Both the position numbers and the translations under genes were made by a program. A stretch of 50,955 nucleotides of DNA from Polyangiaceae bacterium. Lineage in GTDB: Bacteria; Myxococcota_A; Polyangia; Polyangiales; Polyangiaceae. The DNA is taken from positions 1 to 50,955 of the forward strand of contig DATBQU010000343.1 in assembly GCA_036560665.1 (NCBI GenBank), given 5' to 3'. Shown here piece after piece: positions 6,005 through 44,095 of this stretch. The number at the start of each line of letters is the position of its first letter. Position 1 is the stretch's first letter. Under the pieces are notes generated by a model, which was not told the origin of the DNA, ran no database searches, and saw only the letters and a list, made by a program, of their open reading frames with translations.

Positions 6005-6172
6005 GGAGGATCGCGTCCCTGCGACGGAGGATCGCGATCCTGCGACGGAGGATCGCGCCCCTGCGACGGAGGATCGCGTCCCTGCGCCGGAGGATCGCGA
6101 TCCTGCGACGGAGGATCGCGATCCCGGGCCCGAGGATCGCGATCCTCCAGCGGAGGGACGCGCCCCTGCCGT
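6005..6172. repeat. Tandem array of eight 21-bp units, each carrying a GGATCGCGATCC-type palindrome
   Basis: Units start at 6005, 6026, 6047, 6068, 6089, 6110, 6131 and 6152, with consensus GGAGGATCGCGATCCTGCGAC. Perfect 12-bp palindromes lie at 6029-6040, 6092-6103, 6113-6124 and 6134-6145. The last one extends to 16 bp at 6132-6147, and the final unit is degenerate. Confidence 0.9.
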
Positions 6173-13526: not shown

Positions 13527-14723
13527 TCACAAACGGCGCGGGCGTGCGGCGTCCATCGCTTCGGACACGATCGCCCGGTCGGCGTCGTCGACGTCGGCCA
13601 CGGCCTCGGCGACGTCGCGCGGGCGCTCGCCGCGGGCGATGCGCTCGCGCGCCTCGGCGCTGCCGGTGAGCAGATCGAAGGCGGGGACGTCGTCCCGGAA
13701 CTCGTACTTCTCGGTGCGGAAGGCGAAGCGCTGGGGGTCCTGCGCCCGGGCGAGGGCCACCAGGGCGAGGTAGGTGGCCAGCGGGCGGAACGCCGAGGCC
13801 TCGGTCACGTGGATCTGCACCCCGCCGCATGCGCGCCCGGCGTGCTTCTGGAACGTGGGCAGGAAGGTCAGGGGACGCGCGCGGAAGCCCGGCAGGGCCA
13901 GGGCGTGGAGGTCGTCGGCCAGGCGAACGCCGTCGATCCACGGCGCGCCGACGACCTCGAACGGCCGGGTGGTGCCCCGGCCCTCGGAGAGGTTGGTCCC
14001 CTCCAGCAGGCAGCCGCCCGGATACACCAGCGCCGTCTCGTAGCGCGGCATGTTCGGCGAGGGCATCACGAAGGGACGGTCCCACGCCGTCGCGTGCTCC
14101 TCGCGCTCCAGCCCGGCGACGCCGAGCACCGTGACCAGCTCGGGCGGGATCCGCTCGATCTCCGCCCGCCACGCCACGATCTCGCCCAGCGTGAGCGAGT
14201 GACGCACCGGCACCGGCTCGAGGCCCACGAAGGAGCAGTGCTCGCGCGTCTGGCGTCGCCCCTCGAGGCGGGCCATGTCGCCGCCCAGCGGGTTCGGCCG
14301 GTCCAGCACGAGCAGGCGCACGCCCGCGCGCGCGCAGGCGCGCATGGCGAGCACCGCCGTCCACACGAAGGTGTAGTAGCGCGAGCCCACGTCCTGTAGG
14401 TCGACCACCAGCACGTCGATCGACGCGATGTCCTCCGGCTTCGGCGAGAGGTCCTCGAAGCGCTCGCCGTAGAGGCTCCGGATGGGCGTACCGAGCGCGT
14501 CCCGCGCGTCCGCGACGCCGATCATGTCCTGGGCCTCGCCGCCGTAGCCGTGCTCGGGGCCGAAGACCACGACGACGGAGACGCCCAGCGCGTCGAGGAT
14601 GCGGCGGGCGTGGACGAGGCGGCGGTCGACCGATGCCGGGTGGGCCAGCAGCCCCACGCGCGAGGCGCGCAGCTCCGCACCCAGCTTGGGGTGGGTGGCG
14701 AGGCGATCGAGCCCGGTGCGCAT
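13527..14723 (-). CDS. DUF1343 family protein (NamZ-like exo-beta-N-acetylmuramidase family)
   Basis: The N-terminal half (MRTGLDRL...RVGLLAHPASVD...VVVFGPEHGYGGEAQD...VDLQDVGSRYYTFVW...VLDRPNPLGG) reads like the DUF1343 pattern as I recall it. Confidence 0.8.
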   Translation of the reverse strand: MRTGLDRLATHPKLGAELRASRVGLLAHPASVDRRLVHARRILDALGVSVVVVFGPEHGYGGEAQDMIGVADARDALGTPIRSLYGERFEDLSPKPEDIASIDVLVVDLQDVGSRYYTFVWTAVLAMRACARAGVRLLVLDRPNPLGGDMARLEGRRQTREHCSFVGLEPVPVRHSLTLGEIVAWRAEIERIPPELVTVLGVAGLEREEHATAWDRPFVMPSPNMPRYETALVYPGGCLLEGTNLSEGRGTTRPFEVVGAPWIDGVRLADDLHALALPGFRARPLTFLPTFQKHAGRACGGVQIHVTEASAFRPLATYLALVALARAQDPQRFAFRTEKYEFRDDVPAFDLLTGSAEARERIARGERPRDVAEAVADVDDADRAIVSEAMDAARPRRL

Positions 14724-14736
14724 GCTCCCCCCGATA

Positions 14737-15900
14737 CTAGAACGAGGCCTGCCCGAAGAGGGCCACCTGACCGCCGTCCGTCGAGGCGCCGGGAAAGACG
14801 TCGATGGGCAGTACGAGCGACAGCAGGGGGAACGAGACGGTCAGCTGCGTGCGGACTCCGACCCGCGTGGCCTCGCCCGTGCGCAGCTGGACGGGAACGC
14901 CCACGCCCAGACCAAGCGACGGGATGAGAAAGACGAGGTCGGGGGTGGCGGCCTCGATCAGCGGCACCAGCGTCGTCCGCCCCTGGAAGCTCGTCTCCAC
15001 GACCGCCGAGGTGATGAGCCACCACGGGTACGCCACCTCGTACCCCAGGCGCCCCCGGAGCTCCGGCGCGTCGAGCCGCCCGCCCAGTCCCAACAGCGGC
15101 CCTCCGAGCAGCAGCGAGGTCCCGGGCTTCACCAGCGAGAAGCGCAGGATGGACGCGTCGCGCGCCGGGATCGTCCGGCGCGCCACCCGCGCGCCACCCT
15201 CGCGCGCGACGGCCCACCCCTGCTGCCCCTCGGCCCAGAGATCGGGGCGGTCGCAGCGAACGACGACGTCGATGGAAGGCGAGCCGGCCCAGCCGCGGAT
15301 GGGCGAGAGCGCGTACTCGTACTCGTCGGAGGTGTCGACCCGGGCCTCCGTGCCGAGCCAGAGGTGCCGTACCTGGAGCGGGGCGAAGGCGAACTCGCCG
15401 AACTGCTCGCTGCGCGTGCCGAAGGTGGCCGGCTCGACCCTCCCGGCGAAGACGAGCGTCGCGCGCGCGTGCGCGTCGACGGTGAGACCGAACCCCATGC
15501 GCGCCGTCTTCTCGCCCGGCTCCGCCATCGCCGGGTCGATCGCCGCCACCACGTCGTCCACGGCGCGGACCTGCTCGGCCGTGAGCGTCCTGCGCGCGTC
15601 GCGGCCGTCGGCCGTGGCGGTCAGGCGCCGCGACGCGATGCCGTAGAACGCGCCCAGCACCTCCTCGCGCGCGTCGGTGGGGTTGAGCACGTGGTAGACG
15701 GCTTCGAAATCGCACCCGCCCACCTCGCAGCGAAACGTGAGCTCCTCGTGCTCCACCGCGAGCGCCGTCGGTTGCAGGACGAACGCACCGCCCTCCTTGC
15801 CCGGCACCCGGATGAACGGCGCGGGCGCGTTGGCCGCAGCGACGCCGGTGAGGGCGAACACGAGCAGGACGGCGAGGAGGAGGGCGGCGATCGGACGCAA
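14737..15900 (-). CDS. Secreted, possibly outer-membrane, hypothetical protein
   Basis: ORF 14737..16065. TTG 15900 gives the signal peptide MRPIAALLLAVLLVFALTGVAAANA. The C-terminal third is beta-strand-like and ends in Phe (ALFGQASF). The start is uncertain. Confidence 0.6.
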   Translation of the reverse strand: MRPIAALLLAVLLVFALTGVAAANAPAPFIRVPGKEGGAFVLQPTALAVEHEELTFRCEVGGCDFEAVYHVLNPTDAREEVLGAFYGIASRRLTATADGRDARRTLTAEQVRAVDDVVAAIDPAMAEPGEKTARMGFGLTVDAHARATLVFAGRVEPATFGTRSEQFGEFAFAPLQVRHLWLGTEARVDTSDEYEYALSPIRGWAGSPSIDVVVRCDRPDLWAEGQQGWAVAREGGARVARRTIPARDASILRFSLVKPGTSLLLGGPLLGLGGRLDAPELRGRLGYEVAYPWWLITSAVVETSFQGRTTLVPLIEAATPDLVFLIPSLGLGVGVPVQLRTGEATRVGVRTQLTVSFPLLSLVLPIDVFPGASTDGGQVALFGQASF

Positions 15901-15903
15901 GGG

Positions 15904-15962
15904 CTCGCGACAGCCTAGGCCACAGCTCGCGAGGTTCGCGAGCCATCGCGAGCCATCGCGAC
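15904..15962. promoter_or_regulatory. Candidate enhancer (UAS) or operator: five TCGCGA palindromic hexamers including a perfect 7-N3-7 dyad
   Basis: TCGCGA occurs at 15905, 15927, 15936, 15946 and 15956. The dyad CTCGCGA-ggt-TCGCGAG spans 15926-15942. The last three copies are 10 bp apart. The cluster lies in a divergent intergenic region. Confidence 0.45.
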
Positions 15963-16012
15963 CGGCGTGCAGCCTGCCTGCGTCGTTTCCTGCACGGGGG
16001 GAATCCGGAGGG

Positions 16013-16027
16013 GGCACGTCGGTTGCA
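16013..16027 (+). promoter_or_regulatory. Sigma54 (-24/-12) promoter candidate
   Basis: GGCACGtcggTTGCA matches TGGCACG-N4-TTGCW except for the leading T. The GC of the -12 box is at 16025-16026, so the predicted +1 is near 16038. Confidence 0.55.
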
Positions 16028-16042
16028 CTGTACGCCTGCGCG

Positions 16043-17011
16043 ATGATCCCCGACGCGGTGACCACGGTTCAGGACGTGGCCAACGCCGCCGGCTGCGCGA
16101 CCAGCGCGGTCTTCGGGCTGAGCAAGCAGATCGTGGACGAGGTCAACTGCCTCGTACCCAACGCCCTGGCGCCGATCCCCAGCCGCCCGAACCTCGTCCA
16201 GAGCTCGACCACGTTCGCGTTCCTCCAGCCCCCGGCGCGCGACGACCTGGTGAAGGCCCTCGACGCGAACACGGGGATGACGCTCGACGTCGAGTCGATC
16301 CTGCGGACCGTCGCCCAGCAGTACCTGCTCTACGCCTGGTACAAGATGGGGCTCTGCGGCATCCAGCTCGCCGCGACGCCGGGCACCTCCAACCACGAGC
16401 AGGGGCTGGCCTTCGACACGGCGGACCACGCCGCGTGGCTCAACATGCTGCAGAGCAACGGGTTCACCTGGTACGGGAGCGCCGACGTCGTTCACTTCGA
16501 CTACACCGGCGGCGGCGCGGTCGATCTCAACGGCAAGGACGTGCTCGCGTTCCAGAAGCTGTGGAACGCCAACAACCCGACCGACCTCATCGCCGAGGAC
16601 GGCTCCTACGGCACCGAGACGGAGACGCGCATCCAGAAGACGGCGGCGGACGGGTTTGCCACGGGCGCGTCCTGCGGGCCGACGCCCGTCGACGGAGGCA
16701 CGCCGCCCCCGGTCGACGGCGGAAACGACGGGGCCGCCGCGAGCGACGCGTCGTCGCCCCCTCCGCCGGGCGACGCCGGCACCGGCGACTCGTCCTCTCC
16801 GCTCCCGGGCGACGACGCAGGCGCCGGCGGTGGCGGGGGCGGTGGCGACGCGTCCACGCCCAACTTCGACCAGCCGGGCGCGGGCTCCGGATGCGCATGC
16901 CGGGCCGCCCCCGGGCCGAGCGACGCCGGCGTCACACTGGCGCTCGCCGCCGTCTGCGCGCTGTCCTACGCTCGCCGGCGTGGAGCCCGAGGACTACCGC
17001 GGCGCCGGTGA
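16043..17011 (+). CDS. Peptidase M15 (VanY / D-Ala-D-Ala carboxypeptidase-like) with a peptidoglycan-binding-like repeat and a C-terminal MYXO-CTERM sorting tag
   Basis: Zinc-site motif SNHEQGLAFD, then VVHFDY. PG_binding-like segment VLAFQKLWNANNP...DGSYGTETETRIQK, then a Gly/Pro/Asp linker. The C-terminus is GSGCACRAAPGPSDAGVTLALAAVCALSYARRR. No N-terminal signal peptide was seen. Confidence 0.8.
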   Translation: MIPDAVTTVQDVANAAGCATSAVFGLSKQIVDEVNCLVPNALAPIPSRPNLVQSSTTFAFLQPPARDDLVKALDANTGMTLDVESILRTVAQQYLLYAWYKMGLCGIQLAATPGTSNHEQGLAFDTADHAAWLNMLQSNGFTWYGSADVVHFDYTGGGAVDLNGKDVLAFQKLWNANNPTDLIAEDGSYGTETETRIQKTAADGFATGASCGPTPVDGGTPPPVDGGNDGAAASDASSPPPPGDAGTGDSSSPLPGDDAGAGGGGGGGDASTPNFDQPGAGSGCACRAAPGPSDAGVTLALAAVCALSYARRRGARGLPRRR

Positions 17012-17570
17012 CGACGAGGCGCACGACGCGATCCGCCAGCACTACGAGACGTTCTTCGACCGCGAGGGCCGCGAGCTCACCTGGCCGCGCGGGCCGGGCG
17101 CCCACCGGCTGGGGGCGTTCCGCGTCCTGGAAGTGCCGCCGAACGAGCGGACCGCCCTGTGGACCTATGCGTCCGTCGGCGCCTACGCCTTCACACCGCC
17201 CGGCGAAGAGGCGATCGAGCTGGTGCTGCTCACCGAACAGCCCACCGGCCGCGGCGTCGAGCTGGTGACGCTCGCGGCGACGTACCACCAGACGCGGCGC
17301 CTGCAGCCAGGTCATCGCCTGCCCCTCGGCGAGCCGTGGCTGGAGGGGGGGACCTGCGACGCATTCCTCGTGTCGCGCCCGCATCCGTTCGAGGCCACCT
17401 TCGGGACGATCCCTCTCGGGGCACGAAGTGTCCGCGTGCTCTGGCTTCTGCCCATCACGCCCGCCGAGCGTCGCTTCGCGGGAGACCACGGCGTGGAGGC
17501 GCTCGAGCAGCGCTTCGACGACGCGGTGGTCGAGTACTGGCGCCCGGGTCGTGCGAGCGTCGTCGAATGA
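16980..17570 (+). CDS. SUFU (suppressor of fused)-like domain protein
   Basis: GTG 16980 is the only start codon available in this frame and overlaps the upstream gene by 32 nt. Pattern: HYETFF...LWTYASVGAYAF...IELVLLTEQP...LWLLPITPAE. Confidence 0.65.
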   Translation: MEPEDYRGAGDDEAHDAIRQHYETFFDREGRELTWPRGPGAHRLGAFRVLEVPPNERTALWTYASVGAYAFTPPGEEAIELVLLTEQPTGRGVELVTLAATYHQTRRLQPGHRLPLGEPWLEGGTCDAFLVSRPHPFEATFGTIPLGARSVRVLWLLPITPAERRFAGDHGVEALEQRFDDAVVEYWRPGRASVVE

Positions 17571-18370
17571 CGATCACCGACCTCGAGCAAGCCTCCCGCC
17601 CCGTCCCGCGAGAGCAGGGCGTCTTCGAGGTCGTCATCCCCGAGGGGTGGCAGCAGGGTCGTGGCGCGTTCGGGGGGCTGACCATCGCCTCCCTGGCGCG
17701 GTCCATCCAGCTGTTCGCGGACACCCCCGACCGGCCGCTTCGCTCCCTGACGGCCCAGCTGCCCGGCCCGACGCTGGTCGGACCGGCGGAGATCCGCGTG
17801 GAGGCCATGCGCATCAGCTCGGGGCAATCGACCCTCGCCGCCCGGCTGACGCAGCAGGGCGAGGTGCGCGCGCTGGCCGTCGCCGTCCTGGCGCACCCGC
17901 GAGCGGTCGGGGCGGACGAGTTCTGCGAGCTCGCGCGGCCCGCGGTGCGGCCCTGGCGCGAGATGACGCCGATCTCCCCGCCCCCCGGCGCGGCCGCGTT
18001 CACGCAGCACTTCGAGTACCGCTCGGACGGCCCCTTCCCCTTCACCTCGGCGAAGGAGGCGAGGGCCGAGGGGTGGATCCGCGCCAGGACCTCGGGCGCC
18101 ATGCCGCACGACGCGCACCTGGCGGCCCTCATCGACGTGTGGTGGCCGGCGTCGTTCGTCCGCGCCGCCGCCCCCCGGCCCATCGGCACCGTCGCCTTCA
18201 CCATGCAGGTGGTCCGCTCGGCGTCGCCGGTCGACCCCGCCGTCCCCCTGGCCTACCGCGGTCGGGTCTGGGTCCAGAGCGAAGGCTGGATCGTCGAGCA
18301 GCGCGAGCTGTGGGACGAGGACGGCCGCCTGATCGCGCTCAACCAGCAGACCATCGCGGTCATCAAGTAG
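17567..18370 (+). CDS. Acyl-CoA thioesterase II-like (double hotdog) thioesterase family protein
   Basis: ATGA start/stop overlap with the upstream gene. GAFGGLTIASLARS and the TesB-like length and pattern. Confidence 0.7.
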   Translation: MTITDLEQASRPVPREQGVFEVVIPEGWQQGRGAFGGLTIASLARSIQLFADTPDRPLRSLTAQLPGPTLVGPAEIRVEAMRISSGQSTLAARLTQQGEVRALAVAVLAHPRAVGADEFCELARPAVRPWREMTPISPPPGAAAFTQHFEYRSDGPFPFTSAKEARAEGWIRARTSGAMPHDAHLAALIDVWWPASFVRAAAPRPIGTVAFTMQVVRSASPVDPAVPLAYRGRVWVQSEGWIVEQRELWDEDGRLIALNQQTIAVIK

Positions 18371-18381
18371 AGTCCTGGGCG

Positions 18382-19746
<1,365 letters not shown>

Positions 19747-44079: not shown

Positions 44080-44095
44080 AGCACCAATCGTGCCA
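44080..44095 (-). promoter_or_regulatory. Sigma54 promoter candidate
   Basis: The minus strand reads TGGCACGATTGGTGCT. The -24 box is perfect, the spacing is correct, and the -12 box is GTGC instead of TTGC. The -12 C is at 44081 and the ATG is at 44065. Confidence 0.35.

Follow-up and report, generated by a model that had tools for sequence, protein, structure and literature searches.

A putative sigma-54 promoter with a phased TCGCGA array upstream of an M15 peptidase gene in an uncultured Polyangiaceae genus

The enhancer of the enteric glnAp2 promoter, from which NtrC acts, consists of two dyads of 17 bp each (TGCACC-N5-GGTGCA), with their centres at about -140 and -108. In the myxobacterium Myxococcus xanthus, Nla28 (and Nla6) has two to five GC-rich 8-bp half-sites upstream of sigma-54 promoters, with lipoprotein genes among the targets; the Nla28 consensus is CT(C/G)CG(C/G)AG, and the listed sites are degenerate, spaced by N3 to N67 and mostly situated inside genes (PMC9765219). 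Control of the bacterial exterior by sigma-54 has been put forward as a general comparative theme (Francke et al. 2011, PMC3162934), and a review of predation ties sigma-54 and its enhancer-binding proteins (EBPs) to predation only through the control of myxovirescin and a proposed coordinating role (PMC6971385). The regulation of secreted lytic enzymes in myxobacteria is poorly known; our literature search found no sigma-54 regulon of secreted peptidoglycan hydrolases described in these bacteria, and no paper linking TCGCGA with sigma-54. Here we analyse a stretch of 50,955 nucleotides from a Polyangiaceae bacterium (contig DATBQU010000343.1 of assembly GCA_036560665.1; hereafter the window). 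The element under study is a row of TCGCGA hexamers followed by a putative sigma-54 promoter, in the 142-bp spacer between the TTG start of a divergent gene at 15900 and the ATG of an M15/VanY-type peptidase gene at 16043.

The elements of this region are listed below. The positions of TCGCGA sites, here and below, are given relative to a +1 set 12 nt past the C of the -12 GC.

15905..15910, no strand assigned: distal TCGCGA site, starting at about -133, with the TTG of the divergent gene 5 bp away
15925..15943, no strand assigned: perfect 8-N3-8 dyad GCTCGCGA-ggt-TCGCGAGC, which holds the TCGCGA sites at about -111 and -102
15936..15961, no strand assigned: exact 10-bp tandem repeat TCGCGAGCCA in 2.6 copies, with TCGCGA at about -102, -92 and -82
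15966..15996, no strand assigned: inverted repeat CGTGCAG-N17-CTGCACG, between the putative enhancer and the promoter
16012..16027, plus strand: putative sigma-54 promoter gGGCACGtcggTTGCA, with the -24 GG at 16013-16014 and the -12 GC at 16025-16026
16043..17011, plus strand: gene for an M15/VanY-type peptidase (Pfam), the first gene downstream, whose product has a MYXO-CTERM-like tail

Judged from sequence comparisons, region 15905-16027 very probably constitutes a sigma-54 promoter module with an EBP enhancer that drives the M15 peptidase gene and makes it a member of a regulon in this Polyangiaceae genus. The proposed mechanism is that of a standard sigma-54/EBP enhancer with an NtrC-like organisation, and the sequence of the sites is neither NtrC-like nor Nla28-like. 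Sigma-54 RNA polymerase would sit on GG(16013-14)-N10-GC(16025-26) as a closed complex, and a bacterial EBP would occupy the cTCGCGAg sites starting near -113/-111, -102, -92 and -82, plus the one at -133. These sites are one helical turn apart and may form two adjacent dimer sites that nucleate an ATPase ring on one face of the DNA, after which DNA looping and ATP hydrolysis would lead to opening of the promoter. The output of the regulon would be secreted proteins and lipoproteins, mostly peptidoglycan hydrolases.

The arrangement is similar to that at glnAp2 in that a sigma-54 promoter would be activated from tandem upstream dimer sites whose half-site centres are about one helical turn apart, and in that multiple adjacent sites are thought to nucleate an AAA+ oligomer. 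Unlike the NtrC sites, however, the sites in the window have the unrelated sequence cTCGCGAg, in which each half-site is itself palindromic; they are closer to the promoter (starts from -82 to -113), and the candidate regulon comprises secreted cell-wall hydrolases instead of nitrogen assimilation genes. An NtrC-type site was rejected because of the mismatch in sequence, and neither of the two EBPs considered below (one encoded in the window, one at locus C401) reaches the NCBIfam NtrC equivalog cut-off. With the Nla28 system the module shares its myxobacterial origin, the clustering of half-sites upstream of a sigma-54 promoter and the presence of lipoproteins among the targets. It differs in that CTCGCGAG departs from the Nla28 consensus at two central positions, in that the hexamer is exact and its register fixed, and in that the EBP gene at 18382-19746 has no adjacent histidine kinase gene. 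An Nla28-type site was therefore rejected on account of the two central mismatches and the different architecture. The targets, being envelope, secreted and cell-wall-related proteins, do fit the theme of sigma-54 as controller of the exterior, but neither a TCGCGA enhancer nor a Polyangiaceae regulon of secreted lytic enzymes is described there (Francke et al. 2011, PMC3162934).

A preliminary description of this DNA had reported a sigma-54-type match, five TCGCGA copies and an NtrC-style dyad. The match is present: GGCACGtcggTTGCA occupies 16013-16027, its spacing is the canonical GG-N10-GC, and the downstream gene begins with the ATG at 16043. The five hexamers were confirmed as well; they start at 15905, 15927, 15936, 15946 and 15956, that is at -133, -111, -102, -92 and -82. 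TCGCGA occurs once per 2.1 kb in the assembly, whereas base composition would predict once per 3.1 kb; clusters of five copies in 60 bp exist at only two places in the genome, in the window and at C394:2750-2799. The last three copies in the window are not independent of each other, because 15936-15961 is an exact 10-bp tandem repeat. The positions of the copies in this repeat (about -102, -92 and -82) are those common to other modules. The dyad is real and slightly longer than first described, with 8-nt arms at 15925-15943, and may represent one dimer site. A genome scan for the exact CTCGCGA-N3-TCGCGAG dyad, which had been suggested as a check, showed that it is unique to this locus; this 7-N3-7 dyad is not the recurring or conserved unit, and the other modules use steps of 10-12 or about 21 bp. 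What remains of the NtrC-style label is the geometry, in outline. TCGCGA pairs at 9-12-bp steps resemble sites for helix-turn-helix dimers, and the four-site core would correspond to two adjacent dimer sites. In an alignment of 56 TCGCGA sites, 59% have a C directly before the hexamer and 59% a G directly after it; with flanks symmetric in this way, the unit is the palindrome cTCGCGAg; the oriented 8-mer TCGCGAGC was rejected as the unit on these grounds. Other N3-spaced TCGCGA pairs in the genome derive from a repeat of about 42 bp with TCGCGAGGCTCGCGA (C311:900-1200, C459:4330-4470 and C386:4157 of G000), which is unrelated to sigma-54 sites.

The module is not confined to the window. Scoring with a position weight matrix (PWM) gave 173 sites of at least 12 bits in the genome, three of which have at least three TCGCGA copies in the 200 bp upstream; 0.09 were expected from the background frequency of 5.4e-4. 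Both five-copy clusters lie upstream of sigma-54 sites of at least 12 bits, in the correct orientation. The succession of array, -24/-12 element and start codon of a secreted protein gene was found at six loci, C343 (the window), C394, C377, C416, C284 and C401, so that five modules in the same genome and about a dozen in congeners add to that in the window. At C394 the hexamers start at -126, -114, -102, -92 and -82, and array and promoter are common to this locus and its orthologue in congener G001. Across 16-19 modules the starts cluster at -82, -92, -102 and -113, positions that recur in congeners G001, G019, G021, G022, G023 and G045. A Rayleigh test with a 10.5-bp period gave p ~5e-4 for 12 independent modules, and p 0.013 for the six loci found without a spacing constraint. 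Upstream of strong sigma-54 sites, seven TCGCGA copies were in register versus two out of phase, as against 11 versus 11 upstream of weak sites. This fixed helical register at many independent loci bears out the earlier proposal of a sigma-54 promoter with an upstream TCGCGA activator sequence, as far as comparison of sequences can do so. Since the TCGCGA row recurs at the same distance before other hydrolase genes, the module would be the mark of a regulon and not a one-off. A mobile promoter cassette was rejected, given that the sequences between array and promoter are non-homologous between loci. Within that interval, modules C394, L063, L062, L099 and L101 carry a GATTCG(C)G(T)GG-like element at about -55 to -45, and L077 a similar one; a second protein might bind there, or the element might help to bend the DNA. 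Its only equivalent in the window is GGAATCCGG near -36.

Conservation upstream of orthologues, another expectation of the preliminary description, was found for the M15 gene itself. Its orthologue in G001 is preceded by CTCGCGAG at -101 and -81 and then by GGTACGgcgcGTGCA, and follows a different, co-directional upstream gene. The inverted repeat at 15966-15996 is partly kept there (GTGCAGC...CCTGCAG). For C401 we sought orthologues of the amidase gene in relatives to check conservation of its enhancer, but this gene is not conserved. We took 78 Polyangiaceae homologues of the M15 gene with 1.2-kb flanks. In 35 of them the 500 bp upstream contain a coding-strand site that reaches 12 bits, as compared with none on the opposite strand and two in coding controls, which indicates that the -24/-12 promoter is kept in this gene family. 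Outside the family Polyangiaceae but within the order, sites such as cGGCACGgccgTTGCT, GGCACGaatgTTGCT and TGGTACGgagaTTGCG stand just before the start codons of M15 homologues. The promoter-bearing homologues include those of the cultured strains Chondromyces apiculatus DSM 436 and Polyangium fumosum DSM 14668, so that this part of the module can be tested at the bench.

The enhancer does not follow the promoter in this respect. Among the sigma-54 promoters of the M15 family in other Polyangiaceae genera, none has two or more TCGCGA copies. Instead, the homologues of these genera (L143-L212) are enriched 5.5-fold in GGATC/GATCC between about -120 and -85 (mean 1.95 vs 0.35 per 115 bp), often as GGATCC or GGATC-N-GATCC, at the place where the genus of the window has TCGCGA. 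This looks like turnover of the enhancer between genera with conservation of the promoter; if so, one gene family can keep its promoter type while the enhancer sequence is swapped. Elsewhere in the window, at 6005-6172 and between divergent genes, tandem 21-bp units contain GGATCGCGATCC, a palindrome that combines both motif types, its GGATC arms enclosing a TCGCGA core.

The distance between promoter and start codon was analysed as well. In the window, 15 nt separate the end of the promoter from the ATG of the M15 gene. Across the genome, a long reading frame with high GC content at third codon positions starts 11-15 nt past 29 of the 173 strong sites (17%; at least 12 bits), versus 3.5% of weak sites. 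Start codons peak at 12-13 nt past the sigma-54 sites (e.g. C161:3601, C446, C134, C370 and C192:6633), and the products listed behind 11-15-nt sites are mostly signal-peptide-like proteins or lipoproteins. The spacing in the window fits this peak, which speaks for the promoter call as well as for 16043 as the start codon, and we predict a genome-wide class of near-leaderless sigma-54 mRNAs. Transcription of the M15 gene would start near 16038 (16037-16040), about 3-6 nt before the ATG, making its mRNA nearly leaderless. The genome has rpoN (a Sigma54_DBD match at C160) and about 42 EBP genes, counted as sigma-54 AAA+ domains. A second strong sigma-54 site in the window, TGGCACGattgGTGCT (44080-44095, minus strand, 15.2 bits), has no TCGCGA array upstream and is another example of this spacing: a lipoprotein gene (MNRRAVIAVAVAFAAFSPLAGC...) has its ATG 14 nt further on.

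Several observations weigh against this interpretation. gGGCACGtcggTTGCA scores 14.8 bits, the maximum being 18.8, and comes 35th in the genome (assembly of 4.8 Mb, 72.9% GC). Thirty-five sites there reach at least this value; base composition predicts 34, and the sequence read in reverse has 29. Hence, the genome scan with a sigma-54 PWM that the preliminary description had suggested did recover the site, but at a score no better than chance; taken alone, the -24/-12 match is no more than chance in this genome. We accordingly rejected the PWM score as a sign of significance in itself, and the significance of the promoter rests on its context and conservation. The PWM, moreover, is our own approximation of the published statistics of the consensus TGGCACG-N4-TTGCW. 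A single recent tandem duplication of 10 bp accounts for three of the five TCGCGA copies, the promoter of the G001 orthologue is weaker (12.2 bits), and the patterns used to find modules in congeners fixed the spacing of TCGCGA pairs, though not their phase to the promoter. The M15 protein of the window lacks a signal peptide while its MYXO-CTERM tail is kept, and its gene may thus be atypical or decaying. Finally, all genomes with modules are metagenome-assembled, and that of the window is 66.6% complete.

The chance-level score and the slippage-like repeat could be taken together to mean that a fortuitous -24/-12 look-alike stands beside a slippage-made 10-bp microsatellite, and that neither has a regulatory role. 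Such a coincidence is highly improbable in view of the conservation of promoter sites across the family (35 of 78 members, against none in the strand control), the fixed register of the array at many non-homologous loci, the retention of array and promoter in the G001 orthologue despite its different upstream gene, and the functional coherence of the downstream genes.

This coherence concerns all modules, not only that in the window. Module genes appear to encode secreted proteins or lipoproteins, mostly peptidoglycan hydrolases. The Pfam families recognised are VanY/M15 (the window), GH25 (C284 and a G022 locus), Amidase_2 (C401), and, in congeners, Peptidase_M23 (G045), Phage_lysozyme2 (G021) and an Rv2525c-like glycosidase (G023). 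Several others are lipoproteins without a Pfam match, and MYXO-CTERM tails are present in many module products. PHROGs gave no match for any of the Pfam-negative module proteins, and PDB sequence searches with the C416 and C394 proteins gave nothing useful. The C416 family (C416:2095-3159 and homologues P0001-P0120) has invariant Cys and His residues; many Polyangiaceae proteins combine its unannotated domain with GH25 or Phage_lysozyme2, and in others a MYXO-CTERM tail is its only companion. The best match of its AlphaFold model (predicted local distance difference test score 83) was an NlpC/P60 domain (Foldseek E 6e-3, probability 0.99), and an NlpC/P60-like fold is predicted for this family. 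The M15 protein of the window also matches a phage endolysin family (PHROGs). The M15 proteins of the window and of G001 (L002) begin directly at the catalytic domain, without a signal peptide; in most other M15 homologues the conserved domain starts about 150-250 nt past the promoter, and the inspected ones begin with a signal peptide.

In its widest form, our proposal is that a single sigma-54/EBP circuit acting on cTCGCGAg arrays (-82 to -113) switches on the secreted bacteriolytic enzymes of one uncultured Polyangiaceae genus, that sister genera use GGATC-type sites, and that an EBP gene may have been captured to form a cascade. We put this forward tentatively, as an idea about as easily doubted as believed. 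Translated from nearly leaderless mRNAs and in many cases bearing MYXO-CTERM tails, the enzymes would include amidase, phage-type lysozyme, M15, M23, GH25 and NlpC/P60-like proteins, and are plausibly a predatory arsenal for the degradation of cell walls. For a candidate regulon of Polyangiaceae in which sigma-54 controls cell-wall hydrolases, the analysis provides a precise cis-element, its geometry and a gene set.

The genes around the spacer, besides the M15 gene, are the following.

13527-14723, minus strand: NamZ (Pfam)
14737..15900, minus strand: 387-aa secreted protein with a TTG start and a signal peptide, no family match
17001..17570, plus strand: SUFU-like gene, overlapping the end of the M15 gene
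17567..18370, plus strand: acyl-CoA thioesterase gene, overlapping the SUFU-like gene by 4 nt
18382..19746, plus strand: gene for a response-regulator EBP with a GAFTDA loop and Receiver, sigma-54 AAA+ and HTH_8 domains, starting 11 nt past the thioesterase stop

The array might also, or instead, be an operator for the divergent minus-strand operon, which encodes the 387-aa secreted protein, NamZ and two Ser/Thr kinases. Between the most distal TCGCGA and the TTG at 15900 the distance is 5 bp, and the promoter of that operon has to lie within the 142-bp spacer. On the minus strand of the spacer, however, we found neither a -24/-12 site that could serve the divergent genes, to which the preliminary description had also related this region, nor a sigma-70-like match; no sigma-70-like promoter was found in the spacer as a whole. 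In addition, the arrays of the other modules are not located beside a divergent gene, the gene upstream in G001 being co-directional, and the register of the array is tied to the plus-strand promoter. A role in divergent transcription, which would be compatible with activation of the M15 promoter, is therefore quite improbable. The 387-aa protein had no match in Pfam, NCBIfam or PHROGs, ends in ...GQASF, and was not found in any congener flank examined.

The preliminary description had further suggested that the genes downstream form an autoregulated sigma-54 unit closed by the EBP gene at 18382-19746, whose product would bind the TCGCGA array and activate its own operon. The organisation of the locus agrees with this. 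The EBP gene is co-directional, the junctions between the M15, SUFU-like, thioesterase and EBP genes measure -11, -4 and +11 nt, and neither a terminator nor a sigma-70-like promoter was found between the M15 and EBP genes. The GAFTDA loop is kept in 30 of 30 EBP orthologues, and this variant is regarded as functional in Desulfovibrio vulgaris (PMC4641369). Furthermore, the upstream region kept by the orthologues has been lost in the window genome, so that the EBP must be expressed from further upstream here. The four genes at 14737-18370, present between NamZ and the EBP gene only in the window genome, take the place of this region. Read-through from upstream is a likely source of EBP expression, the SUFU-like, thioesterase and EBP genes probably being co-transcribed with the M15 gene. 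The linkage is absent in congeners, however: the EBP orthologue adjoins a divergent NamZ gene in 11 of 18, and M15, SUFU-like and thioesterase genes are upstream of it in none of the 18. No TCGCGA array is present upstream of the EBP orthologues. None of the five other loci in this genome or of the about a dozen congener modules adjoins an EBP of this type, and the G001 M15 module has no EBP gene nearby. The helix-turn-helix of this EBP is essentially invariant in congeners, including G007, G012, G002, G015, G005 and G003, in which no module was found; identity over the whole protein is 80-91% among members of the genus and 55-77% in the order at large. Autoregulation by this EBP is thus unlikely, and it is more likely that the co-transcribed EBP is a passenger or the next step of a cascade than the protein that binds TCGCGA. 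If the proposed regulon is real, a deeply conserved EBP gene would have been captured into one of its operons here, giving rise to a regulatory cascade. A foreign origin of 14737-18370 was rejected, as no compositional anomaly was found in this block. In the orthologues the region between NamZ and the EBP gene (L022-L039, about 110-160 bp) is conserved and mostly ends in ...tgaagagatttcgtacc-ATG; many of these regions contain a GCAAC-N2-3-GTTGC palindrome, missing in the window genome.

A further candidate for the activator is the response-regulator EBP encoded at C401:9229-10617, which has a canonical GAFTGA loop. The gene order at this locus is EBP, Ser/Thr kinase, module and Amidase_2 gene, with the EBP gene 1.8 kb upstream of the module. 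Of 31 congeners, 18 have an orthologue (84-93% identity), among them all of the 6-7 genomes with a credible module, and no module was found in the 13 genomes without this EBP. The association between EBP and module gave a one-sided hypergeometric p of 0.012-0.025, with shared ancestry ignored and about 40 other EBPs left outside the profile. On the other hand, 11 or 12 genomes with a C401-type EBP show no module, the synteny of EBP, kinase and module at C401 is not conserved in congeners, and EBPs of other types are found near modules at about the chance rate (e.g. an FHA-type EBP at G023:C756). We regard the C401 EBP as a possible but, on balance, rather doubtful activator. Within 8 kb of 12 congener modules there are two EBP genes, of different types, which is again about the rate expected by chance.

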